Origin: Acidimicrobiia bacterium
Lineage (GTDB): Bacteria; Actinomycetota; Acidimicrobiia; Spongiisociales; UBA5794
Length of the DNA stretch: 53,445 nt
Assembly: GCA_013003395.1 (NCBI GenBank)
Contig: JABDJC010000220.1
Span: 1 to 53,445, forward strand
Reading direction: 5' to 3'
In this document: positions 3,199-46,522 of the stretch, piece by piece
Layout: the number at the start of each line of letters is the position of its first letter
How positions within the stretch are numbered: the stretch's first letter is position 1
Notes under the pieces: model-generated
Told to the model about the DNA's origin: nothing
The model's input: only the letters and a program-made list of their open reading frames with translations
Databases searched by the model: none
Made by a program: the position numbers and the translations under genes

Positions 3199-4259
3199 CG
3201 TATGCGGTTGAACTGCGCGGGGTGTCGAAGCGTTTCGGCGAGGTTGTCGCCGTCGAGTCGCTCGATCTCGCCATCGACGACGGCGAGTTCTTTTCGCTGC
3301 TCGGGCCGTCTGGCTGTGGCAAGACGACAACGCTTCGCATGATCGCCGGATTCGAATACCCGACCGAGGGGAGCCTCGCCATTCATGGCACGGAGATGGC
3401 TCTCCAGCCTCCCAACCAGAGGCCGGTGAACACGGTGTTCCAGTCGTATGCACTCTTTCCGCACATGACCATCGCAGAGAACGTGGGCTTTGGTCTGCTG
3501 ATGCAGAAAGTCGCCAAGTCCGAGATCAGTACCCGAGTCGACCGAGCTCTCGACATGGTGCAACTCTCACAACGCAAGGGCGCAACCCCCGACAAGCTGT
3601 CTGGCGGACAACAACAACGAGTTGCTCTGGCTCGCGCTCTCGTCAACGAGCCAGAGGTGCTCCTGCTCGATGAACCGCTCGGCGCCCTCGACCTCAAACT
3701 GCGCCAGCAGATGCAGATCGAACTGAAGGAACTGCAGGAGCGTGTTGGCATCACGTTCGTGTACGTGACGCACGATCAAGAGGAAGCGCTCACGATGTCC
3801 GACAGGATCGGCGTGATGAGCGATGGTCGACTGCTGCAAGTAGGTGACGCAACTGAGATCTACGAGCGCCCGACGTCCCGTTTCGTAGCGGACTTCATCG
3901 GTGACATCAATCTGTTGCCCGCCGCGATAACCGGCCCCGGCGTCGTGACATTGGCCGGAACCACGCCGGTGTCTGCGCCTTCGGCCGTTGCCGGCAACGC
4001 TGCCAACTGGCTGGCACTGCGGCCTGAGCAGCTGCATCTGATCCGCCACGACGAAATCGTCCCTGACGACCGAAATTCGATTTCGGGAACGGTCAACAAC
4101 CGCGTGTACTTCGGTGATTCGTATTACTACGTCGTTGCGACCCCCGTAGGAGCTCTCGACGTCCGCCAGGAAAACCGTCCGGGTCTGGCGCTTCACGATC
4201 CGGGCACAAGTGTTCACGTGTGGTGGCACCCCGACGCAGCGGCGATGGTCCTGGAATGA
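3195..4259 (+). CDS. potA: Spermidine/putrescine ABC transporter ATP-binding protein
   Basis: Walker A GPSGCGKTT, VFQSYALFPH, LSGGQQQRVALARAL, Walker B LLLDEP, C-terminal TOBE-like region. Confidence 0.9.
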   Translation: MTYAVELRGVSKRFGEVVAVESLDLAIDDGEFFSLLGPSGCGKTTTLRMIAGFEYPTEGSLAIHGTEMALQPPNQRPVNTVFQSYALFPHMTIAENVGFGLLMQKVAKSEISTRVDRALDMVQLSQRKGATPDKLSGGQQQRVALARALVNEPEVLLLDEPLGALDLKLRQQMQIELKELQERVGITFVYVTHDQEEALTMSDRIGVMSDGRLLQVGDATEIYERPTSRFVADFIGDINLLPAAITGPGVVTLAGTTPVSAPSAVAGNAANWLALRPEQLHLIRHDEIVPDDRNSISGTVNNRVYFGDSYYYVVATPVGALDVRQENRPGLALHDPGTSVHVWWHPDAAAMVLE

Positions 4260-28557: not shown

Positions 28558-29061
28558 TCAGGCGGTTTCTGCAGCCTCTGCTTCTTCAAGGCGGTTCATC
28601 GCCGCCAAGAACATGACGAACAGGATGAACGATCCGATCATCACCGCAGCCGCCGGTACTCGAATCTGGAATGCGTTCAAACCTTCGATTCGAGCGGGCC
28701 GAAGACCCCGGGGGGCATAGACCACGAAGAGCAGGGAACCAATGGCCAGCCATCCGAAGGAGGCTGCACCTCCGACGAGGAAGGCGAGCCGCTTGCCGAG
28801 GTTCGTGTACAGCAGCAGGAACCCGGTGCCGTTGAAGGCGATCAGTGCCGTCACCGTGACGAGGACACCGCGTGCAGCGATCGAGGCCTGAGTGATCTGT
28901 CCACTCTCGTCGGTGTTTTTGAAGATTGCGTCGTACGCGTCGCCGATGGCGCCTCGGATGGCCGGAACAAAGACAAGAGCGGTGAGGATGACGAGCGCGA
29001 TACCAAGCTTCTCGAGCATCGTGAACCCGGATTCTTCACGGTGAAGCCGCTCGATCATCAC
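28558..29061 (-). CDS. Small polytopic membrane protein, last gene of the Rieske/cyt b operon
   Basis: About 4 TM helices; start overlaps the cytochrome c stop; N-terminus contains EESGFTMLE. Confidence 0.7.
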   Translation of the reverse strand: MMIERLHREESGFTMLEKLGIALVILTALVFVPAIRGAIGDAYDAIFKNTDESGQITQASIAARGVLVTVTALIAFNGTGFLLLYTNLGKRLAFLVGGAASFGWLAIGSLLFVVYAPRGLRPARIEGLNAFQIRVPAAAVMIGSFILFVMFLAAMNRLEEAEAAETA

Positions 29062-30661: not shown

Positions 30662-31486
30662 TCAGTTGCATGTCGGACCCTGGGGGTACGCGATGGTCTT
30701 GACCGAAGCACGAGGAGTCTGGATGACTTGGCCGGTGTCGATGATGAGATTGCCGTTCGCGTTGACCTCGATCACGAAGCGGTCGAGGTTACGTGGAGCC
30801 GGACCGTCGAAGTACTCGCCGTGGAAGTTGTACTTCGAGCCGTGACATGGGCACTCGAATCCTTGCGAGGGGATGCACTCAGGGACGCGGCAGCCGAGGT
30901 GGACGCATCGCTGCCACAGCGCCATCACGCCACCGGCCACAACGGGAAGTCCCTCGAACGACGATCCTTCGATGTCCGCATCGAACGTAGTCACCCACGA
31001 CTGGGCGGCAGGCAGGAACACTGGCACCAGCGTGCCGTCCGGTTGGTTGATGGCGTCGACGATGTCTTGCACGGAACCCACGTCGATCTTGGCGCCGAAT
31101 CCACCCTTCAGCTTCGGCCAGAAGAAGGCGAGGCCTGCAATGGCGAACTGGGCGAGAAAGATGCCGAAGATGCCGACGAGCGATCGGTTCAGAAACTGAC
31201 GCCGCGTGACATCGTATTCGTCTTTGGTGATGGTCGTCCGCTCGAGCAACGGATCCTTCACCGGCTCAGGATGTTCGGCTACCAGTACGTCTCCGGCCGC
31301 AACATCGGCAGCGTCGACGGACCCTACACGACGGGTGCGTGCCCGATCGCGTGCCCGTGCCTTGCGGCTGAGACGACCTGTGCTCTCGGGTTGCTTCTCC
31401 CGCCGTCCCGCGACAGCAAAGATGCTCACGAATGCGAGCACCGCAACGGCGGCGATAGCCACGATGAAGATCTGTGTCGTGTTCAA
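30662..31486 (-). CDS. Rieske [2Fe-2S] protein
   Basis: CVHLGC and CPCHGSKY, GPAPRNL, Tat motif TRRQFL; TTG start overlaps the upstream stop. Confidence 0.92.
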   Translation of the reverse strand: MNTTQIFIVAIAAVAVLAFVSIFAVAGRREKQPESTGRLSRKARARDRARTRRVGSVDAADVAAGDVLVAEHPEPVKDPLLERTTITKDEYDVTRRQFLNRSLVGIFGIFLAQFAIAGLAFFWPKLKGGFGAKIDVGSVQDIVDAINQPDGTLVPVFLPAAQSWVTTFDADIEGSSFEGLPVVAGGVMALWQRCVHLGCRVPECIPSQGFECPCHGSKYNFHGEYFDGPAPRNLDRFVIEVNANGNLIIDTGQVIQTPRASVKTIAYPQGPTCN

Positions 31487-32397
31487 AAGTCGAAGAATAT
31501 CCCGTCTGCCCAAGGATACGTGAAGTTGAACCCTGGGCCTCTGAAGAACGAACCGAAGATGGTCAAGATTGCTGATGCCATGACAAAGAACGTGAAGATC
31601 ATTATGGCCAGTTTGCGGTCATTGGGCCGCACCGAAGGGTTCTTGTCGATGTAGGGGATGAAAGCGATGGCCGCGATGCCGAAGCCAGGAATGATCACGC
31701 CTGCGACTTGGGGATCGAAGTAGCTCAACAGTTCCTGCAAGCCGAGGAAGTACCACGGAGCCTTCGACGGGTTCGGCTGTTCGTTGAAGTTGGCCAACTC
31801 CAACAGGGGAGCATCGACGAAGACCGAAAAGACCAGCAGGAATGCCGTCATCACCATCAAGGCGACAAACTCGGCAGCGACGAGGTGGGGCCACGTGTTG
31901 ACCTTGTCGTGCGGTTCCTTCTTCACCTGCTGAATGGCGTTGGCCTTGACGACCGTAAGGAGACGTTGGGTCCGAACTCCGGCGGGTATTGCAGCTACTG
32001 GGGCAGCGGCAGGAGCCGCTGCTGCGCCGCCACCACCGCCTGCGGCCACGGGTGCCGCCGGCGCAGCGCCCGGAAGCGCGATGCCGTCGGCCTTGGCGCG
32101 TGCTCTCGTGCTGCGTTCGATGAGCGATTCGGGTACGCCAACGTCGGCCATTGCTGCGAAGCCCTCGAGGGCCGCTCCACCGGGGTCAGCGGCAGCGGGT
32201 GCTGCGGCGGCAGGTTCTGGCGCCACAGCCTCGGCGACTGGAGCCGCGGCGGGCTCGCCGGCTGGAGCCGCAGCAGGCGCTGAGCCGCCCTCGGGTGCGA
32301 GACCCATTTCGGCAAGGATCTCGTCGAGCGGTCGACCTTCCGCCTTGGCACGCGCCGCCGCGGAGCGTCTGAGGATGGATTCAGGTATCTCAGCCAA
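31483..32397 (-). CDS. Cytochrome b subunit IV (PetD-like) with Ala/Pro-rich N-terminal extension
   Basis: WPHL, NPSKAPWYFLGLQELL (PEWY equivalent), IPYIDKNP and three TM helices. Confidence 0.85.
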   Translation of the reverse strand: MAEIPESILRRSAAARAKAEGRPLDEILAEMGLAPEGGSAPAAAPAGEPAAAPVAEAVAPEPAAAAPAAADPGGAALEGFAAMADVGVPESLIERSTRARAKADGIALPGAAPAAPVAAGGGGGAAAAPAAAPVAAIPAGVRTQRLLTVVKANAIQQVKKEPHDKVNTWPHLVAAEFVALMVMTAFLLVFSVFVDAPLLELANFNEQPNPSKAPWYFLGLQELLSYFDPQVAGVIIPGFGIAAIAFIPYIDKNPSVRPNDRKLAIMIFTFFVMASAILTIFGSFFRGPGFNFTYPWADGIFFDF

Positions 32398-32406
32398 GCG
32401 CTTCTC

Positions 32407-33192
<786 letters not shown>

Positions 33193-33288
33193 CGTCGCTC
33201 CTCCCGCTCGTCATGTAGGTGTTCGAGTTGCCGATCGACAGTCTCCCCGCCCACGCCGTGCCATGCAAAACAATCGTGGAAGTCATGG

Positions 33289-33735
33289 TCACCACCGCAT
33301 CCCGTAGGAGTAACCGTTCTTGAAATCGCGGTCACCGGTGTCCACATCCCACGGAGCCAAACCGAGCTCTTCGCCCTGCTGAGCCAACGAGCCCTCGAAT
33401 TTGCCGAGGGTGATGACGTTGGTCGGACACCGGTCTACGCACAGCGCACACCGCGTACATTCGTCCTCGTCGACCACGAAGATTCCGAAGTTCGATTCGT
33501 CCATTCGCGGGTCGCTGACGTTCGTGGCCTCGGCGATTGCGTCGACTGAGAGGTAGTGGATGCACTTCCACGGACAGATGTCGACACAGCCCTCGCACAG
33601 GATGCACTCGGATTGGTTGATGTGCAGGAACTGTTTGGGCTTGACCGCAGCCTTCAAGTAGTCACCAGACACCTCGGTCAGTTGGTAGTCGTCACGCATC
33701 GGGGGCGTTTCGAACCAGACGTCATTCTTGGCCAT
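33289..33735 (-). CDS. 2x[4Fe-4S] dicluster ferredoxin
   Basis: CILCEGCVDICP and CTRCALCVDRCP motifs. Confidence 0.92.
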   Translation of the reverse strand: MAKNDVWFETPPMRDDYQLTEVSGDYLKAAVKPKQFLHINQSECILCEGCVDICPWKCIHYLSVDAIAEATNVSDPRMDESNFGIFVVDEDECTRCALCVDRCPTNVITLGKFEGSLAQQGEELGLAPWDVDTGDRDFKNGYSYGMRW

Positions 33736-34322
33736 CAGGCATCACCAATCATCGGTCGACCGTACGCCGAGATCTCGACAGGAGGTGGTGCGTCCCGCCT
33801 CGCCTTCTCGCGATTCTGCCACCAGACCATCACTGCGGGCCAGGCGAGGAGCGCCGTCGTCGAGTAACCGGCCGACACAACGTCCTTGATGACTGCGTAG
33901 GAGATCGTGACCTCATTGTTCAACGTGAGCGCTCGCGGGAGTGAGAACGCAATCTTCTGCGGTGTCCATTCGAGTTGGCTCTGCGTGAGCGTGAGCCACT
34001 GATTGGGAATCATGCCGAAGATGATCAGCGACTCGACCACGAACACTGCCGCACCGATGCTGGCTCGAGCCCAGGTCATGGGGCGCTCCCAGACAAACGC
34101 AACCACGATGCCGATCAAAGCGATCTGTCCGCCGGTGATGGCGATGAGTTGGCCGATCGAGGTCCAGACCCAACCACGCGGGATGAACTCGTAGATGGGC
34201 TCGTCGAACTGGTTGACCGGAGAGAGTTCCGTGAAGTGGGCCCACAACACGCCGATCGTGAGGATGACGGAACCACCGACCATGGCTGCAATGCCAAGGC
34301 GCAAGCGCTTCTGGTCTGTCAC
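33735..34322 (-). CDS. Uncharacterised 4-TM membrane protein, first gene of the Rieske/cyt b operon
   Basis: GGAGGA RBS then GTG at 34322; hydrophobic helices; stop overlaps the ferredoxin ATG. Confidence 0.7.
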   Translation of the reverse strand: MTDQKRLRLGIAAMVGGSVILTIGVLWAHFTELSPVNQFDEPIYEFIPRGWVWTSIGQLIAITGGQIALIGIVVAFVWERPMTWARASIGAAVFVVESLIIFGMIPNQWLTLTQSQLEWTPQKIAFSLPRALTLNNEVTISYAVIKDVVSAGYSTTALLAWPAVMVWWQNREKARRDAPPPVEISAYGRPMIGDA

Positions 34323-34537
34323 GGTGCGTCCTCCTGGCAACTCATCGATCGCGCGGTGGTCATTGTACGCATGAGTGCGCATCCTAAAGGTCTGCAGGAG
34401 TCTGTTGGCAACATGCTCCGATGAGGACCTCGCGTCAGTCGACGACCGGCGATCCGCGACAGATTCCATAGAGATGATGGCGGGTCGCGAACACCGCTAG
34501 GCTTGCGGCCCGCAGGCCCGCATTCCACGGAGGAACG

Positions 34538-36475
34538 GTGAGCGCAGAGATCCAGGCAACCGAAGCGACCTCCCTGTCTGACGGGGATGTGGCCGCTGCC
34601 AACAGCACATCGTTGGCGCACCTCAGAGTTGCCGGCGCATTTCTCGTTGCAGCTGCGCTACTGGGAATGGTGGCCGCATTCCAGATCGTTGCCCCCGACT
34701 TGCTCAGCGGCGTCGAGATGTTCTCCTACGGCCGGATCGCTCCTGTCGCGCTCGACACCTTCATCTACGGGTGGCTGACGATCGGACTCATCGGGGCTGC
34801 CTATCACATTCTTCCAAAGGTCTCTGAAGCGCCCTTGTGGAATCCGATGCTTGCGAAGACGGGCCTTGGCCTGATCACGCTCGGTGTGGCCATCGGCGGC
34901 CTGGCGGTGCTCTCTGGCTTCAACGAGGGCCGACTGCTGCTCGAGTATCCACTCTGGGCAGACGCGCTCATCGTGTTGGGCGTCGCAATCGCCGCATTCG
35001 TTTGCACGAAGACCGTGTCAGGCGGACAAAAGGACCTGATGCCTGCCCAGTGGTTCCTCGTTGCAGCACCGTGGTGGTTCGTGTTCAGTTTCGTCAGCGG
35101 AAACCTTCCTGGAATCCCGGGTGTCAATTCGCAGCTGCTGACCTCGTTCTTCCAATCCAGCTTCACCGGGCTGTGGCTCGCTGCGGCCGGCGTTGGCGTT
35201 GTCTATCACATCGTTCCTGCACTGACCGGTCACGGCCAGCGGCGGTCCTCGCGGATCTCGCTCATCGTGTTCTGGTCGCTCGCATTCGCCTGGGCCTGGA
35301 CCGGTCCACGATTCAATGTGTACGGACCGGTGCCTGACTGGCTCGAGACCATCGGTGCGTTCTTTGCGATCGGGCTGTTGGTGCCGGCAATCGCAGTCAT
35401 CGCGGACGTCGCATTCACCGTGCGCGACCGTTGGGATCACGTGACCAACCAGGCGGCGATCCGCTACCTCGCTGCCGGCTTCGTCTTCTTCACGATTGCG
35501 GCGGTCCAGAACATGGTGCAGTCGCTTCGGTCGCCTAGTGCGGTCTTGCAGTTCACTGCATGGCAATCGGCTTTCGACCTCGTCTTGTTCTATGGCGCCA
35601 TCTCGTTCTGGCTGTTCGCATTCGTCTCGGTCTCGCTGCCTGCGCTCGCGGGACGCCGTCCCACCGACGTATCGGCGCAGGTGCACTTCGGTGTGTCCGT
35701 CTCTGGTTTGCTGCTCGCCGTCGGAGCATCCTGGTTTGGTGGCCTGCAGCAAGGGCTGACATGGATCGGCACCGCGAACACCGAGGACGTGCTGCCCTAC
35801 GGCGAACAGTTCATCAATTCGGTTGGTCCACTCGAGGGTCCGTGGCTGCTGCGTGCCTTTGGACTGGCACTGTTTGCGCTGGCACAGTTCCTGTTCCTTC
35901 GTTCCCTGTTCGGCGCCGGCGCCGAGGCCACCGATGTAGACCGGGTTGTCGTAGACGATGACGGGGACGATCCAGCGGTCCTCGATCCGGCTCCGCCTGT
36001 GTTGCTGGGCGGGCTGTTGAAAGGCGCCGTCGGCTTGTTTGCCGTTGCGGCTCTCTCAGTTTGGATCCTGCCCAGCTTTGAAGCCGAAAACGTCGAAGGC
36101 ACCATCCTCGGCGACTTCAGCCGCTTCTATGAAGAGGGATCGGATGAGGCTGCCGGTCGACAGATCTACCTCCAGGAAGGCTGCTGGTACTGCCACACAC
36201 AACAAGTCCGACCGATCGTCACCGATGTCGGACTCGGACCCGTGAGCCAGGCAGGAGACTACGTGCACGAGACCCCGGCGATGTTCGGGGTGCAACGGAT
36301 CGGGCCCGACTTGATGCACTCCGGCTCCAGAGAGCCGACGGACTCGGTCGCCTGGCTGACTGCGTATCTCAACGACCCCCGCGCGGTGCGGCCTTGGTCG
36401 ACGATGCCCGCGTATGGCAGTCTGAGTGACACAGAAATCTCGCAACTGGCCGCCTATCTCGTGAGTCTCGACTGA
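34538..36475 (+). CDS. cbb3-type oxidase CcoN-like (ligand-less) domain fused to a CcoO monoheme cytochrome c
   Basis: FSYGR, GRLLLEYP and TGP...YGPVPDWL match CcoN framework motifs. The C-terminus has GCWYCHTQQVRP, RIGPDL and STMPAY. Confidence 0.85.
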   Translation: MSAEIQATEATSLSDGDVAAANSTSLAHLRVAGAFLVAAALLGMVAAFQIVAPDLLSGVEMFSYGRIAPVALDTFIYGWLTIGLIGAAYHILPKVSEAPLWNPMLAKTGLGLITLGVAIGGLAVLSGFNEGRLLLEYPLWADALIVLGVAIAAFVCTKTVSGGQKDLMPAQWFLVAAPWWFVFSFVSGNLPGIPGVNSQLLTSFFQSSFTGLWLAAAGVGVVYHIVPALTGHGQRRSSRISLIVFWSLAFAWAWTGPRFNVYGPVPDWLETIGAFFAIGLLVPAIAVIADVAFTVRDRWDHVTNQAAIRYLAAGFVFFTIAAVQNMVQSLRSPSAVLQFTAWQSAFDLVLFYGAISFWLFAFVSVSLPALAGRRPTDVSAQVHFGVSVSGLLLAVGASWFGGLQQGLTWIGTANTEDVLPYGEQFINSVGPLEGPWLLRAFGLALFALAQFLFLRSLFGAGAEATDVDRVVVDDDGDDPAVLDPAPPVLLGGLLKGAVGLFAVAALSVWILPSFEAENVEGTILGDFSRFYEEGSDEAAGRQIYLQEGCWYCHTQQVRPIVTDVGLGPVSQAGDYVHETPAMFGVQRIGPDLMHSGSREPTDSVAWLTAYLNDPRAVRPWSTMPAYGSLSDTEISQLAAYLVSLD

Positions 36476-36477
36476 TC

Positions 36478-37338
36478 ATGCAAGAACAGCTCGCTTCCAT
36501 CTCCGCTGAACTGGGAGTTCCAACCGACCTGGTGGAACGTGCGGCACGTGCTCGCGCCACCGCTACCGGGACGACGGTGGAGCAGATCGTTGCTGCCTGG
36601 AGCGGCGGAGAGGCGGCGCCGGCAGCGGCAGCTCCTCCCGCAGCGTCTGCAGCCGCTCCTGCAGCTGCCCCGGCGGCGGCGGCTCCTGCAGCGCCGGCTG
36701 GGCCGATCGTCGAAATCTTCGAGCCAACGGCCGCTCCGCCTGAAGTTGAAGTAGAGGTTGAACCTGAGGTGCCCGAGCCCGTGAAGCGTCGGGCCGTGCC
36801 CGTTTGGATGATGGCCACGTTCGTCGCGATTCCCGCAGTGGCCCTCATGTACGCATTGTTGATTCCGAACGGGCCAGACTGCGGAGGTGGCGGCCAACTC
36901 GCCATCGATCCCGTCACTGGAGTTGCGCAGTCTTGCGATGGTTCTGAATACGGTGTCAGCGCGGTCGATTTCTTCGCGATGGGCAGCGACCTGTACGCCA
37001 CCCAATGTGCGGCTTGCCACGGTGCGGAAGGCGGCGGCGGCGCCGGCCCCGCATTCACCGGAGGAGCAGTCCTCGCCAGTTTTCCCACTGATCAGTGTGC
37101 GACCCACGTCGAGTGGGTGGCTCTGGGGAGCAGCGCCTGGCCGGAAGCCACCTATGGAGCGTTGGACACACCAGTCGGCAGCAGTGGTGGCGTGATGCCA
37201 GGCTTCGGGTCACGCCTGTCACCGGAAGAGCTAGCAGCCGTCGTGCTCTATGAGCGTGTGGCGTTCGGTGGAGAGGGCATCGGAGTTGCAGAGGCCGATT
37301 GCGGACTCGGCGACGAAGCGGTTGCTGCCGGCGAATAG
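36478..37338 (+). CDS. Membrane-anchored monoheme cytochrome c with Ala/Pro-rich N-terminal arm
   Basis: One TM; CAACH; VMPGFG; 2 nt downstream of the CcoNO-like gene. Confidence 0.88.
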   Translation: MQEQLASISAELGVPTDLVERAARARATATGTTVEQIVAAWSGGEAAPAAAAPPAASAAAPAAAPAAAAPAAPAGPIVEIFEPTAAPPEVEVEVEPEVPEPVKRRAVPVWMMATFVAIPAVALMYALLIPNGPDCGGGGQLAIDPVTGVAQSCDGSEYGVSAVDFFAMGSDLYATQCAACHGAEGGGGAGPAFTGGAVLASFPTDQCATHVEWVALGSSAWPEATYGALDTPVGSSGGVMPGFGSRLSPEELAAVVLYERVAFGGEGIGVAEADCGLGDEAVAAGE

Positions 37339-38743: not shown

Positions 38744-41700
38744 TTGCCAATCGAGCCGTTCGTGAACACACAAACCACTTCTAAATCCGTAGACACCGCG
38801 CGTCGATGGGAGGGCCGTCCGGTCCTCTCATTCGCCGTGCGTTCTGCAGTCTTTCTGCTTCCGATCCTGGCGTCGATCGGAGTATCCGTGGGATTGTCCA
38901 AGGCGGCCCCATCGCCTGACAACGTGATCCAGCTCGGGCTGATCTGGTTGGTGATCATCGTGGCGTCGACGGCAACTCTCATGAGCGTGGAGAAAGTGGC
39001 TCGCAAGGCGCTCCCGCTGGCAGCGATGCTGAGCCTCACGATGGTGTTTCCGGATCAATCGCCGTCGCGTTTCCGAACTGCCCTTCGATCTGGCTCATCA
39101 GTGAAGAATCTTCGCGCCATCCTGGCCGAGGCCGAGTCGGTGGACGACAACTCGCCGGCTAAATCAGCTGAGTTGGTGTTGCAGCTGGCCACGGCACTCA
39201 ACACTCACGACCCTCGCACCCGTGGTCATGCCGAGCGCGTTCGGGCTTACACGGAGATGTTGGCCGAAGAAATGAACATCGGCGACGAGGACCGGGCAAA
39301 ACTGCGTTGGGCGTCATTGCTTCACGACATCGGCAAGTTGAAGGTCTCCACCGACATCTTGAACAAGCCAGGCAAACTCGACGACGACGAGTGGGAGCAG
39401 ATCAAGCTACACCCGGTCTTCGGTGAGGAGATTTGCGGACCTCTCCTCGACTGGCTCGGACCATGGGCCGGAGCGGTTGTCGATCACCACGAGCGCTTTG
39501 ACGGAAACGGGTACCCACACGGCAAGGCCGGTAGCGAGATCTCGCAAGCCGGCCGGATCGTCTGTGTCGCAGATGCGTACGACGTGATGACGACGGTGCG
39601 TTCCTACAAGGAACCGATGTCGACGGCCGAGGCTCGCCAAGAGCTGGCGCGTCACGCCGGAGCCCAGTTCGATCCAAAGGTCGTGCGGACGTTCCTGAAT
39701 CTCTCGATGGGCCGCCTGCGATGGATCGCTGGTCCGTTGTCGTGGCTGGCGCAGCTGCCGTTCCTCCAAGGTCTGGCCGGTGTGGCGCAGAGCGTCGGGT
39801 CGACGGTTGGTGTTGCCGCAGTCGCGACGGGCGGGGCTGCCGCCGCCCTCACGACCGGAGTCGTGACCTTGCCAGGCAGCGGACCGCTCGAGCTTCCGGA
39901 ACCACCTCCCGCATTGGTGCAATTCGTCGACACGCAATACGCACCCGTCGCCAGAGACGATTTCGCAACTGCAACGCAAGACGCGCGGCGAGTCATCGAC
40001 GTGTTGAACAACGATGCGCTGTCGAGCATTGACACCCTGGCGATCGTCGTCGACCCGTCGTTCGGAACCGTCATCGTCAACGCCGACGGCACCGTCACCT
40101 ACATTCCGTCCGGCGAGTACGTCGGTGAGGACGAATTCGTCTACGAAGTTATCGACAGCGGCGGGCAATCGACGACGGCAACGGTCGTGATCACGGTGGT
40201 TGGGGTCAATGATGCGCCGATCGTCCGAGGCGACTCTGCGACCGTCGACGAAGACGACGCAGTCGATATCGATGTGCTTGCAAACGACAGCGACGCAGAT
40301 GGGGCCATCGCCGCCATCGAGCTCGTCGGCCAACCTTCGAACGGCGTCGCAACCCTCAACAGCAACTTGACGGTCAACTACCGGCCAGATGCCGACTTCT
40401 TCGGATCTGATCTGATCACCTACGTCGCCATCGATGAGGATGGCGCACGGTCGGAGGGCACCGTCGCAGTGGTGGTCCGGCCGGTCAACGACCCTGTCGT
40501 CGATCCGGGGCCGGGGACGCTCGTGGCGGCTGGGGGCAAGACTGTTCGTTTCGACCCGCTGGCGCTGGCCGTCGACAAAGACGGGGACACAGTGTTCCTC
40601 GCATGGTTCGACTCGATCTCGATCGCTGGAGGCACTGTCGTCGAGGGAAGTCTCATCTACACACCGCCATATGCGTACTCGGGTTCCGACTCCTTCCGTT
40701 ATGCGCTGTCGGACGGAATCGTCGAGACCGTCGTAACCGTACGGCTCGATGTACGGGGCACCCCGGACACAGCTGGACCCACGATCACGCTGCTCGGCCC
40801 GAACCCGCTGGTCCTGAACATCGGTGACGAGTTCACCGATCCAGGGGCGCAGGTCGCAGACGCCGACCCATCCTTCAAACCATCGTTCATAGTCGACGCT
40901 ACCGCCGTCGATACGAGCAAGGCCGGTTCGTATCTCGTCGTCTACACGTCGACCGACCCGACGGGGAACACGTCGACCCGCACAAGGACCGTCGTCGTGG
41001 AAGACCCGAACGGCCCTCAACTGTTGGTCAAGGGTTCGAATCCGCTCACGATGGAGGCCGGACAGCTGTACGTCGAGGCCGGCGCCACCGCCTCCGACGC
41101 GAAAGACGGTGACCTCACCGCGTCGGTCATCGTCGACGCTTCGCTGCTCAATGCCGGTCGACCAGGAACCTATACGGTCTCATATCGAGTCACCGACTCG
41201 GATGGAAAGCAGGCCACAGCGCAACGCACGGTCAAAGTGATCGACACCACGAAGCCCAAGATCGTGCTGAAGGGCGCCGATCCGCAGACCATCGAAGCCG
41301 GTGGGGCCTATGTGGAACTCGGTGCCACGGCGGCAGACAACGACACCAGCTTCGCCGCGAGCGCTGTCCCTGATGCCAGCGGCGTGGACGCCTCTCGTCC
41401 CGGTACCTACACCGTCACGTACTCAGTCAGCGACTCTTCGGGCAACAGCGCAAACCCGGCAGTCCGAACGGTGAACGTCGTGGACACGACGAAGCCTGTC
41501 ATCACACTGCAAGGAGCGAACCCTCAGAACATCGAGACCGGCAATCCCTATGTGGAATTGGGAGCAACGGCTACCGACAACGACGCGACGTTCACAGCAT
41601 CGCCAACCGCGGACACCTCGGGGGTCAACACGTCTGTCTCTGGCACCTATACCGTCGTCTATACAGTCGCCGACGCATCGGGTAACACCACAACCAAGAA

Positions 41701-44700
41701 CCGAACCGTTGTTGTGGGCGACATCACGCCGCCAGTCGTCACCCCTACCGGTGCGAATCCGCAGGTCATCGAAGCCGGGAGTGCGTATGTGGAGTTGGGT
41801 GCGACGGCCACGGACAACGACCCGACATTTGCGGCTGTGCCGAGCGCCGACTCGTCGAGTGTCAACACGTCGGTTCCTGGCTCGTACTCGGTGGTGTATT
41901 CGGTGACTGATCCGTCCGGCAACACGGGGACTGCAAACCGGACCGTGGCGGTGGTGGACACGACCGCCCCGGTCATCACGGTGATTGGCAGCAATCCGCA
42001 GGTGATCGAGGCCGGGAGTGCGTATGTGGAGTTGGGTGCGACGGCGACGGACAATGATGCGACGTTCTCGGCGACGCCTACAGCGAATTCGTCGGGAGTG
42101 AATACGTCGGTTCCTGGGTCGTACTCGGTGAGCTATTCGGTGACGGATCCGTCTGGCAACACGGGGACTGCAAACCGGAGCGTGACGGTGGTGGACACGA
42201 CGGCCCCGGTCATCACGGTGATTGGCAGCAATCCGCAGGTGATCGAAGCCGGCGCGGCGTATGTGGAGTTGGGTGCAACGGCGACGGACAATGATGCGAC
42301 GTTCTCAACGACGCCTACGGCGAATTCGTCGGGAGTGAACACGTCGATTCCTGGGTCGTACTCGGTGAGCTATTCGGTGACCGATCCGTCGGGGAACATC
42401 GGGACTGCCAATCGGACGGTGGCGGTGGTGGATACGACTGCTCCGGTCATCAGCCCAACTGGCGCCAATCCGCAAGTCATCGAGGCTGGAGCGCCCTACG
42501 TCGAACTCGGAGCAACGGCGACCGACAACGACGCCACTTTCGGTGGGGTGCCGGCTGCGGACGCGTCTGGAGTGGATACCTCAACACCTGGTTCATATCT
42601 CGTGGCGTATTCGGTCACTGATCCGTCCGGCAACATCGGGACGGCGAATCGAACCGTTGCCGTGGTAGATACGACCGACCCCGTAATCACGGTGACCGGT
42701 GCCGATCCCCAGACCATCGAGGCCGGCTCTTCCTATTCAGAACTCGGAGCATCAGCCACGGACAACGACGCGTCGTTCTCAGCTTCGCCAGTCCCAGACG
42801 CGTCAGGCGTAGACACCGCAACGCCGGGTTCGTACATCGTGGTTTATTCCGTGACCGATCCGTCCGGGAACACCGGCACCGCGAGCCGCGGCGTTGACGT
42901 GGTCGACACCACGCCGCCCGTCGTGACCGCGAGCCAGACGGGTGCGGTCCTCGAGACAGCCACTGTCGGCACGACGGTGATGACCGTCGCCGCAACCGAC
43001 ACCGTGGGAGTCACCGGATTCACCATCGTCGGGGGATCGCCCACGTTCTCGATCGACGCGGCCGGAGTGATCCGCACGTTGGTCCTGCTCGATCACGAAA
43101 CGACGTCGTCATACGGCCTGTCGATCACCGCGACCGATGATGCCGGCAACACATCTGCTGCGGAAACCGTCACCGTCGATGTCGACGACGTCAATGAGCC
43201 GCCGATCGCGGTCAACGATGGAGGTTTCTCAACAACCACTGATGTGACTATCTCTATCGACTCGGCCGACCTGCTCAGCAACGACAGCGATCCCGATGCA
43301 GAGAGCCCGATCTTCGATGACGTTGTCAGCACGACGACCACGCAGGGTGGAACCATCGAGGATCCGGAGAGCGACGGTGTCTACCTGTATACGCCGCCGG
43401 CCGGTGTCGACGGGATCACGGACACGTTCGACTATCGAATCCGCGATGCGCTCGGGCTCACGGACACTGCAACGGTGAGCATCTCGATCGGATCGGCGGT
43501 CTCCGACCCGGCGTTGACCAGCATCGACCCGGCAAGTAGCCCGGCGAGCCCGATCCAAGCGGTGGTCGGCCAGGAGACCCGGATCGACGTGTACGTGCAA
43601 AACCTCTCGGGCGACCCCGCACCGGGTGTCGAGATCACGGTGACGGTCGACAGCGCCGACTTCCTCCTCGTCAACTCGGGAGGATGCTCGCAGACGGCGA
43701 CGGAGGTCGTGTGTCTGCTCGGCAAGGTGAATTCGCTCCAGATCAAGAGCCACAAGGTGGAGTTGGTGCCCCAGAACGTCGGATCCGGCTGGGCGTTGCC
43801 GGTGGTCGTGACGATGAACGGCTCGGACACCGACGGCACCAACAACTCGGGAACGATCTATTTGGACGTCACGCCCACCCCGCTGCTCGTCAGCGAGTTC
43901 GCCACCGAGGGGCCGGGCGACTTCATTGAGCTGTACAACGCCGGGACCTCCGACATCGACATCGCCGGCCTCGAGGTGCGCCTAAACGGCGCTGGTGTGA
44001 GCGACATCACGCTGGCCGGTGCCGACACGGTGCTCGCACCAGGTGAGCATTTTCTCCTAGCCGACGATGCGGGCGACCTCGACGGGGCTGCCGACCAGAC
44101 GTTCGCCTTCGATTTGCCGGCGGATCTGGGTATTCGGATCCGGGATGCTTCGGGTGTCGTCGATGAAGTCGGGACAGGGACGTCGTCGTGGTTCGAGGGT
44201 GCTGCGCTCCCGGCGATGGTGGTGGACCCAACAACAGAGCAGAGCTACGAGCGCCTCGACAGCTCCACCTCCGGGAGCTGCGTCGACACCGGAGACAACG
44301 GCGCCGACTTCATCCGCCACTGGGACCATCGGGATCCGCAGGCGACCGACGACCTGGCGACGCCATGCGGTGCGCCCCTCTACGTGGTGTCTGCCGACGC
44401 CGGTGTCGTGGTGGTCAACGAACTGTTGTATTCCCAGACGGGGGCGAAGGACGAGTTCATTGAGCTCTACAACGCCGGGGGCTCGGACTACGACCTGACG
44501 GGCTTGCGGCTGACCGACTCGAGTCCGTTCACCGGTCACGTCGACCCCAACGATCCCCTCGACTTCACGATTCCCGCAACCGACCTGGCGTCCAACCCAT
44601 CGACGCTTCCCCCAGGTGGCATCGCCGTCATCTGGCTCCAAGAGGACGGTGGCGACACCGGCGCGGCGCTGCACTACAACGTCGATGAAGGGGACCCTGG

Positions 44701-46522
44701 AGTGCTTTCCAACGTGGCCGACGAAGTCTGGCTCGTGGACACTTCAGGCGCCATTGTCGATTATGTCGCCTATGGGGCCGCCAACACCGGAGAGAGGGAC
44801 ACGCCCATTCCAGATGCTCTCGGCATGTGGAACGCCGCCGGTGAAGCCGCGCTCGGCGGCGTCGCAGCCGGCACTTCCATCGCCCTCACCCCCTCAGGCC
44901 TCGATTCCGATGACAGCGCGTGTTGGGAGGTGACCGGTACCGGAACATCGTCCTGCGGTCCGGGCACTGTCGACCTCGACGCAGCCGCCGGTCGAGTGAC
45001 GTCCGTCGGCAGCAACAACAACAATCTGGTTGCCGACGTTGCGTTCCACAGTTCCGTGCCTGCGGGGAACTTGGCGAATCCCGTCCAAGTCACGACCGGC
45101 GTGCCGATGACCATCGACATCACCGCGGAGAACCGCGGCCCATCTCAAGCGCCGGCGTCGAAGGTGTTGCTGCCGCTCGCAACCGGCGAATTCGCGTTCA
45201 ACGGTGGACCCAGCTCGCCCGGATGCGCCTACGACGCGGTCGACCAGGAGGTCACGTGCTCCATCGGTGTTCTGGCGTCCGGAAACAGCGAAACGGTGAC
45301 GATAGGTATCACACCACTCCTTCCAGGCAGCTACACCTTGGCCCTCAGCGTGAATTCGGTCTCGGCGACGGATCCCGATCTGACCAACAACGCGGGCGCA
45401 ATCTCCGTCGACGTCGTACCCACGCCCACACACGTCGTGATCAGTGAGTTCTCGACGGATCGTGCCACGGACTTCGTCGAGCTGTACAACCCGACCAGCG
45501 CTCCGGTGCTGCTCGATGGCTATACGCTCAGGGTGTACCCGCCCGATGGCACGGCAGGCTTCACCGTGGAAGCAACCATCCCACTCGCCAGCTCGACGTT
45601 CATCCCCGCGAACGGCTACTTCCTCATCGGAAACACACCGGATTTGGCACCCGTGGCGGCGGATCATGCGGCGAGCTTCGACGTGGCGCAGTACGGCGGC
45701 GTGGAGATCGCCGACGCGCTCGGAGCCGCGATCGACGGTGCCGGCACGGCGCCTCGCCCTGGGGGCGGCCCGAACGAGCAAGGTGCCGCCTCGAGTGAGG
45801 GCAACGGCGTCGCCGCGATGAACCCCGGCCCGAACGAGCAGTCGATGCAGCGAAGGCACGGCGACGGCCTTGGCAGCTGCATCGACACAGACGACAACGC
45901 CTCAGACTTCGTCCACAACAACGGTGGCGTGAGCCCCAAGAACACCTCGACGGTTGAAGCCTGCGGAACTCCGCCGCTTCCGCCCCCGTCGTCGGCGGCC
46001 GGCGTGGTCATCTCGGAGATCCGGACCGATGGTCCCAATGGCGGTGGCGACGAGATGATCGAGATCTTCAACGCCGGACCGACCTCGGTCGACCTCTTGA
46101 ACTGGGAGCTGCAAGTCGGCGATGGCTTCACTTTGATCTTCAGGTTCAATTCTTTGATCCTCGAGCCAGGTCAGCACTTCCTGTTCGCCACTGCGTCGTC
46201 CGGACTGACGGCCGACACGATCTACGGGCCCGGTGGTACCTCGATCCACGGCACGCTGTTCACGACCGACACCGTCACCAACGGTGCCGCCGTGAGGATC
46301 GTCGACGGCGGCGGAACGCCCATCGACACGGTCGGGTTCGACGGTCCCCCGGCGGAGGGGAATTCCCTGCCGTCACTGTCTACACGAGGGCCGAGCTACG
46401 AGCGCCGGGGCGGAGGCGCCTACGGCAGCTGTGTCGACACCGGCGACAACCTCAGCGACTTCTACATCCGCTCGGTGCCCGATCCTCAAACGCTGGGTGA
46501 CCCGTTCGCCATCTGTTTGTGA
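38744..46522 (+). CDS. Giant HD-GYP phosphodiesterase fused to an adhesin-like ectodomain (Big_9/cadherin-like, 9 DUF5011-like Ig repeats, 2 DUF11-like, 4 lamin-tail domains)
   Basis: TRGHAERV, LHDIGK, HHERFDGNGYP and ADAYDVM; a hydrophobic segment; VNDAP/VNDP repeats; DTTxPVIT repeats; four (S/N)E...(F/M)(I/V)E(L/I)(Y/F)N motifs. Confidence 0.88.
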   Translation: MPIEPFVNTQTTSKSVDTARRWEGRPVLSFAVRSAVFLLPILASIGVSVGLSKAAPSPDNVIQLGLIWLVIIVASTATLMSVEKVARKALPLAAMLSLTMVFPDQSPSRFRTALRSGSSVKNLRAILAEAESVDDNSPAKSAELVLQLATALNTHDPRTRGHAERVRAYTEMLAEEMNIGDEDRAKLRWASLLHDIGKLKVSTDILNKPGKLDDDEWEQIKLHPVFGEEICGPLLDWLGPWAGAVVDHHERFDGNGYPHGKAGSEISQAGRIVCVADAYDVMTTVRSYKEPMSTAEARQELARHAGAQFDPKVVRTFLNLSMGRLRWIAGPLSWLAQLPFLQGLAGVAQSVGSTVGVAAVATGGAAAALTTGVVTLPGSGPLELPEPPPALVQFVDTQYAPVARDDFATATQDARRVIDVLNNDALSSIDTLAIVVDPSFGTVIVNADGTVTYIPSGEYVGEDEFVYEVIDSGGQSTTATVVITVVGVNDAPIVRGDSATVDEDDAVDIDVLANDSDADGAIAAIELVGQPSNGVATLNSNLTVNYRPDADFFGSDLITYVAIDEDGARSEGTVAVVVRPVNDPVVDPGPGTLVAAGGKTVRFDPLALAVDKDGDTVFLAWFDSISIAGGTVVEGSLIYTPPYAYSGSDSFRYALSDGIVETVVTVRLDVRGTPDTAGPTITLLGPNPLVLNIGDEFTDPGAQVADADPSFKPSFIVDATAVDTSKAGSYLVVYTSTDPTGNTSTRTRTVVVEDPNGPQLLVKGSNPLTMEAGQLYVEAGATASDAKDGDLTASVIVDASLLNAGRPGTYTVSYRVTDSDGKQATAQRTVKVIDTTKPKIVLKGADPQTIEAGGAYVELGATAADNDTSFAASAVPDASGVDASRPGTYTVTYSVSDSSGNSANPAVRTVNVVDTTKPVITLQGANPQNIETGNPYVELGATATDNDATFTASPTADTSGVNTSVSGTYTVVYTVADASGNTTTKNRTVVVGDITPPVVTPTGANPQVIEAGSAYVELGATATDNDPTFAAVPSADSSSVNTSVPGSYSVVYSVTDPSGNTGTANRTVAVVDTTAPVITVIGSNPQVIEAGSAYVELGATATDNDATFSATPTANSSGVNTSVPGSYSVSYSVTDPSGNTGTANRSVTVVDTTAPVITVIGSNPQVIEAGAAYVELGATATDNDATFSTTPTANSSGVNTSIPGSYSVSYSVTDPSGNIGTANRTVAVVDTTAPVISPTGANPQVIEAGAPYVELGATATDNDATFGGVPAADASGVDTSTPGSYLVAYSVTDPSGNIGTANRTVAVVDTTDPVITVTGADPQTIEAGSSYSELGASATDNDASFSASPVPDASGVDTATPGSYIVVYSVTDPSGNTGTASRGVDVVDTTPPVVTASQTGAVLETATVGTTVMTVAATDTVGVTGFTIVGGSPTFSIDAAGVIRTLVLLDHETTSSYGLSITATDDAGNTSAAETVTVDVDDVNEPPIAVNDGGFSTTTDVTISIDSADLLSNDSDPDAESPIFDDVVSTTTTQGGTIEDPESDGVYLYTPPAGVDGITDTFDYRIRDALGLTDTATVSISIGSAVSDPALTSIDPASSPASPIQAVVGQETRIDVYVQNLSGDPAPGVEITVTVDSADFLLVNSGGCSQTATEVVCLLGKVNSLQIKSHKVELVPQNVGSGWALPVVVTMNGSDTDGTNNSGTIYLDVTPTPLLVSEFATEGPGDFIELYNAGTSDIDIAGLEVRLNGAGVSDITLAGADTVLAPGEHFLLADDAGDLDGAADQTFAFDLPADLGIRIRDASGVVDEVGTGTSSWFEGAALPAMVVDPTTEQSYERLDSSTSGSCVDTGDNGADFIRHWDHRDPQATDDLATPCGAPLYVVSADAGVVVVNELLYSQTGAKDEFIELYNAGGSDYDLTGLRLTDSSPFTGHVDPNDPLDFTIPATDLASNPSTLPPGGIAVIWLQEDGGDTGAALHYNVDEGDPGVLSNVADEVWLVDTSGAIVDYVAYGAANTGERDTPIPDALGMWNAAGEAALGGVAAGTSIALTPSGLDSDDSACWEVTGTGTSSCGPGTVDLDAAAGRVTSVGSNNNNLVADVAFHSSVPAGNLANPVQVTTGVPMTIDITAENRGPSQAPASKVLLPLATGEFAFNGGPSSPGCAYDAVDQEVTCSIGVLASGNSETVTIGITPLLPGSYTLALSVNSVSATDPDLTNNAGAISVDVVPTPTHVVISEFSTDRATDFVELYNPTSAPVLLDGYTLRVYPPDGTAGFTVEATIPLASSTFIPANGYFLIGNTPDLAPVAADHAASFDVAQYGGVEIADALGAAIDGAGTAPRPGGGPNEQGAASSEGNGVAAMNPGPNEQSMQRRHGDGLGSCIDTDDNASDFVHNNGGVSPKNTSTVEACGTPPLPPPSSAAGVVISEIRTDGPNGGGDEMIEIFNAGPTSVDLLNWELQVGDGFTLIFRFNSLILEPGQHFLFATASSGLTADTIYGPGGTSIHGTLFTTDTVTNGAAVRIVDGGGTPIDTVGFDGPPAEGNSLPSLSTRGPSYERRGGGAYGSCVDTGDNLSDFYIRSVPDPQTLGDPFAICL
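40766..42904 (+). repeat. Nine tandem Ig-like coding repeats of about 237 bp (79 aa)
   Basis: Repeat starts at 41720, 41957, 42194, 42431 and 42668 are exactly 237 bp apart; units 6 and 7 are near-identical in DNA. Confidence 0.9.

Follow-up and report, generated by a model that had tools for sequence, protein, structure and literature searches.

What is the helical motif that recurs on proteins of two divergently transcribed respiratory operons in an Acidimicrobiia bacterium, and what might it do there? We addressed this question in contig JABDJC010000220.1 of assembly GCA_013003395.1, analyzed in full as a window of 53,445 nucleotides. One of the two operons encodes a Rieske/cytochrome b complex, and the other encodes a CcoN-like/CcoO-like fusion protein followed by a membrane-anchored cytochrome c. 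We found that the motif is the core of a conserved, lineage-specific module of about 45 residues, which is predicted to be folded and to be held on disordered leashes rich in Ala and Pro. This module moves between at least four subunits of the one operon pair.

A preliminary description of this DNA had placed the motif three times on proteins of both operons. We derived a strict pattern from its consensus, [IVL]P..[ILVM][IVLM].R[SAT]...RA.A.G, and searched the whole assembly (3.24 Mb in 247 contigs, 82% complete, ~62% G+C, with Ala-rich proteins) as 47,093 stop-to-stop open reading frames (ORFs) of at least 40 amino acids in six frames, or 5.2 million residues. The pattern matched residues 4-21 and 88-105 of subunit IV of the Rieske/cytochrome b complex and residues 14-31 of the cytochrome c. 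These were the only matches among the 47,093 ORFs, so that the motif does occur three times, twice on one protein and once on the other, and nowhere else in the assembly; the number expected by chance from residue composition is 0.008. A profile built from the three copies retrieved the two carriers with E values of 1.4e-30 and 2.3e-17, the next ORF having an E value of 0.086. When the profile was built from the two subunit IV copies only, the cytochrome c ORF came top among all other ORFs (E 1.1e-3), and with the cytochrome c copy as the sole query, subunit IV was ranked first (E 2.7e-4). Because each of these one-sided queries recovers the other carrier, the similarity between the copies is not a product of profile building. 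The motif is real and far beyond chance.

The two carriers are laid out as follows:

31483..32397, minus strand: subunit IV ORF, 304 amino acids, TTG start
32299..32397, minus strand: module copy 1, residues 1-33; core helix and short acidic helix, without the upstream helix
32176..32298, minus strand: linker 1, rich in Ala and Pro, residues 34-74; Ala+Pro fraction 0.68
32083..32175, minus strand: module copy 2, residues 75-105; upstream and core helices, without the third helix
31987..32082, minus strand: linker 2, rich in Ala, Pro and Gly, residues 106-137; Ala+Pro fraction 0.66; block-mean predicted local distance difference test score (pLDDT) 38-56
31900..31986, minus strand: membrane-proximal segment, residues 138-166; columns invariant or at least 90% conserved in alignment A4
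31483..31899, minus strand: membrane domain of the PetD type, including the stop codon; PF00032 at residues 202-284, E 5.4e-9
36478..37338, plus strand: anchored cytochrome c ORF, 286 amino acids
36478..36612, plus strand: module copy in the full three-helix form, residues 1-45; Trp at profile position 41; profile E 3.9e-17
36613..36795, plus strand: linker rich in Ala, Pro and Glu, residues 46-106; Ala+Pro fraction 0.62
36796..37338, plus strand: membrane anchor (residues 107-129) and haem c domain, with C-x-x-C-H at residue 177

Both carriers are otherwise ordinary members of their families. Subunit IV belongs to the cytochrome b C-terminal/PetD family (PF00032, 36.7 bits against a cut-off of 20.7) and contains the quinol-oxidation motif A-P-W-Y. 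According to Kao and Hunte 2014 (PMC4122944), the rare split cytochromes b found in deep-branching Actinobacteria, one Ilumatobacter strain among them, have this variant, and the split cytochrome b of the window agrees with the description given there. The cytochrome c is a class I c-type cytochrome, with PF13442 (37.1 bits) and PF00034 (33.8 bits) matching at residues 167-258.

A full-length AlphaFold2 model of subunit IV was obtained from alignment A4, which holds 58 subunit IV relatives. In this model, copy 1 forms helices 6-20 and 24-30 (pLDDT 80-95; profile match E 1.7e-15), copy 2 forms helices 75-85 and 90-104 (pLDDT 86-91; profile match E 1.9e-9), and the membrane helices span residues 169-203, 215-251 and 258-284. 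No secondary structure is predicted for residues 31-74, which cover linker 1 (block-mean pLDDT 42-63), or for residues 105-168, which cover linker 2 and the membrane-proximal segment (pLDDT 38-57). The preliminary description had each copy lie N-terminal to the first membrane helix and be followed by a flexible Ala/Pro-rich linker. This holds for all three copies, with Ala+Pro fractions of 0.62-0.68 and low pLDDT in the subunit IV linkers. The first subunit IV copy begins 2-5 residues from the initiator Met throughout the class. It should be noted that segment 138-166 is modeled at a pLDDT of only ~48-57 despite being near-invariant, and that a related segment is found in subunit IV of other classes; the low model confidence suggests that this segment folds only against another subunit.

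The 18 residues originally delimited do capture a real core helix, but they are too short, since the conserved unit extends over about 45 residues and comprises up to three helices. An alignment of 37 copies (A2) has 45 well-aligned columns, in which an upstream acidic helix is followed by a turn with a near-invariant Pro, the core helix and a short acidic helix that ends in Trp or Met. The consensus of the core helix is [IVM]-P-x-x-L-[LIV]-x-R-S-A-x-A-R-A-K-A-x-G. Conservation, which is not limited to the folding core, is highest at the turn Pro (35/37), R21 (36/37), A25 (36/37), R26 (35/37), A27 (35/37) and G31 (36/37), with Ser or Ala around the arginines. AlphaFold2 run on A2 predicted helices at 2-12, 16-30 and 34-41, with a mean pLDDT of 88.9 and a predicted template modeling score of 0.65. 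The mean net charge of the module is -2.0, and it is zero or negative in 33 of the 37 copies; this lack of basic character speaks against a role in binding nucleic acids or lipids.

We then determined how widely the module occurs. An exhaustive profile search of 1.84 billion representative proteins gave 463 matches at E <= 0.001, 206 at E <= 1e-10 and 26 at E <= 1e-30. It superseded a word-based homolog search with the cytochrome c N-terminus, which was too insensitive and returned only three proteins. Close homologs bear the source name 'Acidimicrobiia bacterium' and are annotated as 'menaquinol-cytochrome c reductase cytochrome b subunit' or 'hypothetical protein'. The best 150 of the 463 matches were classified by comparison with the window proteins. 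Among these 150, the second domain was an anchored cytochrome c in 19, the subunit IV membrane domain in 17, a CcoO-like cytochrome in four, a small membrane protein homologous to the product of 28558-29061 in two (P0004 and P0019) and a multi-pass membrane protein without a family in one (P0151), while no second domain was found in 107. Thus, 42 of the 43 proteins with a second domain are subunits of the two operons. The preliminary description had proposed a hidden Markov model as a check, and the search bears it out on two counts: the similarity goes beyond an Ala/Arg bias, as seen in the 206 representatives at E <= 1e-10, and the motif is not common on non-respiratory proteins.

The number of copies per protein varies. 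The best 150 matches carry one copy in 85 cases, two in 37, three in 17, four in seven, five in three and seven in one. In the loci that were read in relatives, subunit IV has 1-5 copies and the cytochrome c 1-4. The cytochrome c gene of relative G010 (L013, G010:C3, 4635-7032, minus strand) is present as two overlapping ORFs in different frames, with four modules in one and one module, the anchor and the haem domain in the other, which points to a frameshift or an assembly error within the repeat array.

Copies also differ by carrier at profile position 41. Trp occupies this position in 18/18 cytochrome c copies, in 3/3 CcoO copies and in one multi-pass carrier, and in 0/49 subunit IV copies, where Met is the commonest residue (24/49). 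Trp-type copies are nevertheless present on the metagenomic subunit IV-like proteins P0006 and P0020.

Free-standing soluble proteins consisting of the module only were considered and mostly rejected. Of the 107 proteins without a second domain, 21 of the longer ones were inspected, and most are cut or frameshifted gene calls, because their ends fall in the module, the linker or the first membrane helix, or because they have out-of-frame tails. P0102 is chimeric, and P0033, P0070 and P0130 are frameshifted; P0003 and a remnant in genome G024 are possible exceptions. In the window, the respiratory cluster is bordered by a Rex-like and a geranylgeranyl-reductase-like gene; between these two genes in G024 (L014, G024:C33), the cluster is missing. 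A 217-amino-acid ORF at this site (3296-3949, plus strand) consists solely of four module copies (full, short, full, short) and could be a deletion remnant or a free-standing form.

In five near-complete genomes, 24 of 25 profile matches lay within the respiratory cluster. The sole off-cluster match (L023, G037:C1, 4019-5182, plus strand) is a 387-amino-acid multi-pass protein encoded between unrelated metabolic genes. Multi-pass carriers of this kind, of about 390 amino acids, have one N-terminal Trp-type module and no Pfam family, and they occur in at least G026, G035, G037 and G059; the other matches (G026:C3:35535, G035:C6:21463 and G059:C1:1777165) are either on a different contig from the cluster or about 1 Mb away from it. 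In the ESM Atlas, the multi-pass carrier matched hypothetical clusters only.

The module was described as no named domain, and our comparisons agree, as no Pfam, NCBIfam or PDB family was found over it. In whole-protein scans of both carriers against Pfam and NCBIfam (E <= 0.1), every match fell outside the modules. When the 66 longer carriers among the best 150 were scanned against Pfam, as well as eight proteins at E <= 1, no single stretch over a module passed. In multi-copy proteins, Xre-like-HTH and a few unrelated families accumulate a summed score from weak repeated matches, as in P0013, which reaches 39.5 bits with no passing stretch. The module therefore has no domain-level match to a helix-turn-helix family such as Xre-like-HTH (PF20432), and its net charge of -2.0 does not fit one either. 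The E3_binding family was absent from the Pfam scans, and its fold was not among the listed structural neighbors, although it is not thereby excluded.

Structural comparisons were similarly sparse. The profile gave seven chance-level rows against PDB sequences at E <= 10 (best E 0.052), and Foldseek found nothing in the PDB at E <= 0.001. An exhaustive comparison with VIA-align had a best Z score of 6.2, for an archaeal RPA domain. The ANTAR proteins EutV, NasR, AmiR and Rv1626 scored Z 5.3-5.7 (45-47 residues aligned, root-mean-square deviation 1.7-3.3 Å), without a Pfam ANTAR match; Z scores below 8, or below ~13 for helical models, may reflect only a common arrangement. Structural neighbors in the ESM Atlas were Actinomycetota cytochrome c, FixO-domain and hypothetical clusters, with 'no family' over the aligned part, and a feature search of the same resource with the module gave no usable match. 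In literature searches, none of which was aimed at the module itself, no title or abstract beginning described such a module.

On which side of the membrane would the modules lie? In b6f-type complexes, the N-terminus of subunit IV is on the n-side. The haem domain of a c-type cytochrome must be outside, and in both carriers the first membrane helix has Lys and Arg on its N-terminal side and acidic residues on its C-terminal side. For these reasons, all three copies should be cytoplasmic.

The neighboring genes that bear on the role of the module are the following:

28558..29061, minus strand: small membrane subunit at the end of the Rieske operon, without the module here
33289..33735, minus strand: 2x[4Fe-4S] ferredoxin-like protein of the Rieske operon (PF00037 and related families)
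34538..36475, plus strand: CcoN-like/CcoO-like fusion without the module (PF00115 at residues 27-442, PF02433 at residues 536-635)

The gene order is conserved. One strand encodes the small membrane protein, a dihaem cytochrome c, the Rieske protein, subunit IV, cytochrome b6, the 2x[4Fe-4S] ferredoxin-like protein and a membrane protein; the opposite strand encodes the CcoN-like protein, the CcoO-like cytochrome and the anchored cytochrome c. The small membrane subunit has homologs that do carry the module, P0004 with seven copies and P0019 (blastp E 2.9e-21 and 4.1e-29). Where CcoO is a separate gene, it has a module in 3/3 cases (G037, G039 and G044), and where it is fused to the CcoN-like part, in 0/6.

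The CcoN-like part (34538-35950, plus strand) had been labeled a 'pseudo' CcoN, and this label is justified. It matches PF00115 with 116.6 bits, but it reaches only 117.9 bits with TIGR00780 against a cut-off of 583, and there is no invariant histidine among 12 orthologs, the best two columns having histidine in 9/12 and 7/12. Judging from these residues, it is probably unable to bind haem or copper. On other contigs (G000 C47 and C243), this genome has two genuine COX1 genes.

The distribution of the module was then examined at increasing taxonomic depth. A subunit IV homolog was found in 41/41 related genomes from the family and order of the window, including the unpublished G027 and G038. 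In a sample of 301 Acidimicrobiia genomes, including the unpublished G276, 151 had a module match at E <= 1e-5. Within the window's order, the counts by family were 15/16, 35/35, 7/9, 7/7, 3/3, 3/3, 2/2 and 1/1. A family with genomes of ~1 Mb had matches in 65/65 sampled genomes, and one of these (G044) has a single copy on each of three proteins. The remaining families of the class sample had no match or weak ones. In a phylum sample, 7/401 genomes matched at E <= 1e-6, all seven belonging to the window's order. Among the genomes sampled, the full module is limited to part of the Acidimicrobiia.

Both operons were seen in 11 genomes (G000, G007, G010, G012, G019, G020, G032, G037, G039, G044 and G092), and all 11 have at least one module on each operon. 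The module is also found where the CcoN-like gene was not. This gene evolves fast: at E <= 1e-20 it was detected in 67/301 class genomes, a threshold that misses the 1-Mb family although G044 has the gene. When the search was relaxed to E <= 1e-3, G044 served as the positive control and gave a match at E 6.3e-16. At this threshold, neither G005 (96% complete) nor any of three family f6 genomes (95-100% complete) yielded a CcoN-like gene, and modules are present in all four. In one f6 genome, G040, the modules are on a divergent subunit IV-like protein. The module is therefore retained in genomes in which its supposed partner complex was not found.

A reduced form extends somewhat further. Four genomes from four other families of the class, each 99% complete, have the Rieske operon with the ferredoxin, and their subunit IV carries two short copies that comprise nothing but the core helix ([IV]-P-[EA]-H-L-L-x-R-[SA]). 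In G041, a divergently transcribed cytochrome c has the same short core. No CcoN-like gene was found in these four genomes at E <= 1e-10 with the window protein as the query.

Outside the class, the subunit IV membrane domain was detected in 110/251 genomes of other classes of the phylum at E <= 1e-15, a set that includes nine unpublished genomes. In 13 such loci (L042-L054), cytochrome b6, subunit IV, the Rieske protein and the dihaem cytochrome c are encoded together wherever the contig extends. The N-terminus of these subunit IV proteins has a different conserved two-helix element, which includes E-R-[IV]-A-R-A-K-A and is sometimes duplicated. Homology of this element to the module was considered and is unsupported, as all matches of the module profile had E > 0.4.

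What, then, would such a module do? Our preferred reading, which we hold tentatively, is that it docks onto another protein from its tether, and that all carriers share one target, which would be present with or without the CcoN-like operon. Most plausibly, this target would be part of, or attached to, the cytoplasmic face of the Rieske/cytochrome b complex. Subunit IV would then hold it in cis, and the CcoO-like and c-type cytochromes with the same module would be kept near the same target on their long leashes. One candidate for this target is the near-invariant but poorly modeled segment 138-166 of subunit IV. The cytoplasmic side, the multivalency, the leash-like linkers and the two conserved arginines fit a tethered docking unit. 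A common target independent of the CcoN-like operon is favored because the core helix is constant across carriers and because subunit IV keeps the module, or its core, without that operon.

Several points weigh against this reading. All functional statements made here are drawn from anatomy and distribution. The carrier-specific subtypes, with or without Trp at position 41, could mean that different carriers have different targets. The multi-pass carrier is encoded far from the cluster in at least the four genomes named above, from which it follows that the module is not strictly tied to the two operons. Finally, the genomes that were counted are related, so that co-occurrence rests on few independent events.

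A first alternative is that every carrier recruits some soluble protein of the cytoplasm, for instance an enzyme, a regulator or a redox protein, and that the module has no role in joining two complexes. We regard this as unlikely. In its favor, small helical units with conserved exposed arginines, long Ala/Pro linkers and several copies recall tethered docking domains, and a protein unrelated to the cluster carries the module as well. The cytoplasmic ferredoxin-like protein is the candidate named in the preliminary description, and it is encoded in the operon in every relative's locus that covers this part (28 locus entries). However, the ferredoxin gene, like every other gene of the Rieske operon, is also present in lineages that lack the full module: the ferredoxin was found in 11/13 of the other-class loci, was not seen in L049, and L051 ends before reaching its position. 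No candidate partner thus has the distribution of the module. A prediction of the complex between the module (A2) and the operon ferredoxin (A3) scored 0.00 in both runs, with the controls not folded, and this result carries no weight either way. Moreover, almost all carriers belong to one assembly, which a general recruitment tag would not predict.

The modules could also act together as a cytoplasmic 'velcro', in which multivalent copies on subunit IV, the small subunit and the anchored cytochromes would bind each other or a shared hub and gather both complexes into a supercomplex or a membrane patch. This is, in our judgment, unlikely. If true, a respiratory supercomplex would be built from the cytoplasmic side through leashes rather than by membrane contacts, and this arrangement would be an innovation of a single clade of abundant aquatic Actinomycetota.

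The preliminary description had proposed a more direct link, namely a tethered interaction domain that joins the Rieske/cytochrome b complex to the pseudo-CcoNO module. The tethering and the presence on both operons stand, whereas a direct bridge is not favored, as f6 and G005 have modules and no CcoN-like gene was found in them. In its explicit form, modules of subunit IV would bind those of the CcoO-like and c-type cytochromes, or one another, and so connect the two complexes from the cytoplasmic side, and we consider this decidedly unlikely, although it is well matched to some of the data. All 11 genomes in which both operons were seen have modules on both; the Met/Leu and Trp subtypes are what a heterotypic pair needs; several copies per protein would add avidity; and, among the families examined, the full three-helix form is found mainly in lineages with the CcoN-like operon. 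Apart from the genomes just mentioned (at 95-100% completeness for f6 and E <= 1e-3), a simple bridge would have to accommodate the short core copies on subunit IV in four more families, where no CcoN-like gene was found either, and the off-cluster multi-pass membrane protein. In addition, P0004 and P0006/P0020 mix subtypes and carriers, and with up to seven copies per chain, self-binding would tend to collapse within the chain.

More doubtful still is a role in biogenesis, with the module acting as an N-terminal cap that fixes the N-in orientation or protects the N-terminus, or as a handle for assembly factors during cytochrome insertion and maturation. The module always precedes the first membrane helix, it starts close to the initiator Met on subunit IV, and it is lost where CcoO has no free N-terminus, as in the CcoN-CcoO fusions. 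A topology cap, however, needs neither 2-7 copies nor linkers of 30-60 residues, subunit IV of other classes manages without the module, and the two strictly conserved arginines point to recognition of a specific partner. If the module were only an aid to biogenesis, it would be a modest addition to the known lineage-specific domains.

A nucleic-acid-binding module of the helix-turn-helix or ANTAR type, tethering RNA or DNA to the membrane, is very improbable. The predicted three-helix bundle, the ANTAR neighbors at Z 5.3-5.7 and the weak summed scores for helix-turn-helix families in multi-copy proteins speak for it; the mean charge of -2.0 and the lack of any single stretch passing such a family speak against it, as do Z scores below the range that the tool assigns to unrelated helical models and an N-terminal subunit IV copy that is devoid of the first helix of the would-be helix-turn-helix. 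Low-complexity Ala/Arg sequence in a genome of ~62% G+C with Ala-rich proteins has virtually no chance of accounting for the motif, being refuted by the assembly-wide pattern and profile searches, the search of 1.84 billion proteins and the chance estimate (0.008 expected against three seen, 206 representatives at E <= 1e-10), as well as by the confidently predicted fold and by order, spacing and carriers that are conserved across an order and beyond.

Known systems offer partial parallels. In the E2 chains of 2-oxo acid dehydrogenase complexes, the peripheral-subunit-binding domain is a tethered docking site for other subunits. Like the module, it is a very small helical domain between flexible Ala/Pro-rich linkers, with a conserved Arg in a basic first helix, and by analogy it may be the functionally nearest known device. 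The module differs in its longer core helix, its up to three helices, its membrane respiratory carriers, its up to seven copies and its lack of a Pfam match. PetD of b6f and b6c complexes belongs to the same family as the carrier (PF00032), and the extension described here is found at the corresponding terminus and membrane side. While canonical PetD has a short N-terminal stretch, about 165 residues precede the membrane domain here and contain two predicted folded modules, and the same module recurs on unrelated cytochromes.

Within the same phylum, the obligate complex III2-complex IV2 (CIII2CIV2) supercomplexes of mycobacterial and corynebacterial Actinomycetia likewise couple a quinol:cytochrome c reductase to a partner complex without a soluble cytochrome c. 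Their contacts are reportedly made by membrane and periplasmic parts and by extra subunits. Repeated cytoplasmic modules are not known to be the contact there, and the partner in the window is CcoN-like without conserved metal ligands. ANTAR and helix-turn-helix domains have a similar arrangement of three short helices, with scores under meaningful levels, whereas the module is acidic to neutral and is found on membrane proteins. The Geobacter extMNOPQ cluster is likewise a Rieske/cytochrome b cluster with a 4Fe-4S protein, and a ferredoxin-like gene is in the same operon here. Indeed, the cytochrome b6-like protein of the window passes the NCBIfam model ExtP (305 bits against a cut-off of 290), and the match of subunit IV to ExtQ is weak (59 bits, where the cut-off is 150). 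The module profile found none outside the Acidimicrobiia in the phylum sample, and 463 matches in 1.84 billion proteins are few.

What appears to be new is a domain that, by analogy, is of the tethered docking type, in a setting where none has been described and on carriers that are ordinary family members. What holds electron-transport complexes together is still an open question in all but a few model organisms. The module provides, in a widespread class, a conserved and easily recognized sequence handle on at least four different subunits of one assembly. Through its profile, a CcoN-like protein that lacks metal ligands can be recognized as belonging to a working unit, and genome annotators gain a new domain definition.

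Other features of the window were recorded in passing. No RNA runs containing the locus were listed; the listed runs are DNA and are labeled as beach sand and marine sediment metagenomes. The Rieske protein (30662-31513, minus strand) has an extra N-terminal hydrophobic helix, followed by a very basic loop, a twin-arginine-like motif (R-R-x-F-L) and the usual anchor. The membrane protein whose gene abuts the ferredoxin gene (33735-34469, minus strand) matches the archaeal family DUF7139 with 25.2 bits, under the cut-off of 30. Further downstream, a 2592-amino-acid ORF (38744-46522, plus strand) encodes an N-terminal membrane part and a region that we take, by its motif, to resemble an HD-GYP domain, followed by many tandem repeats of about 85-90 residues.

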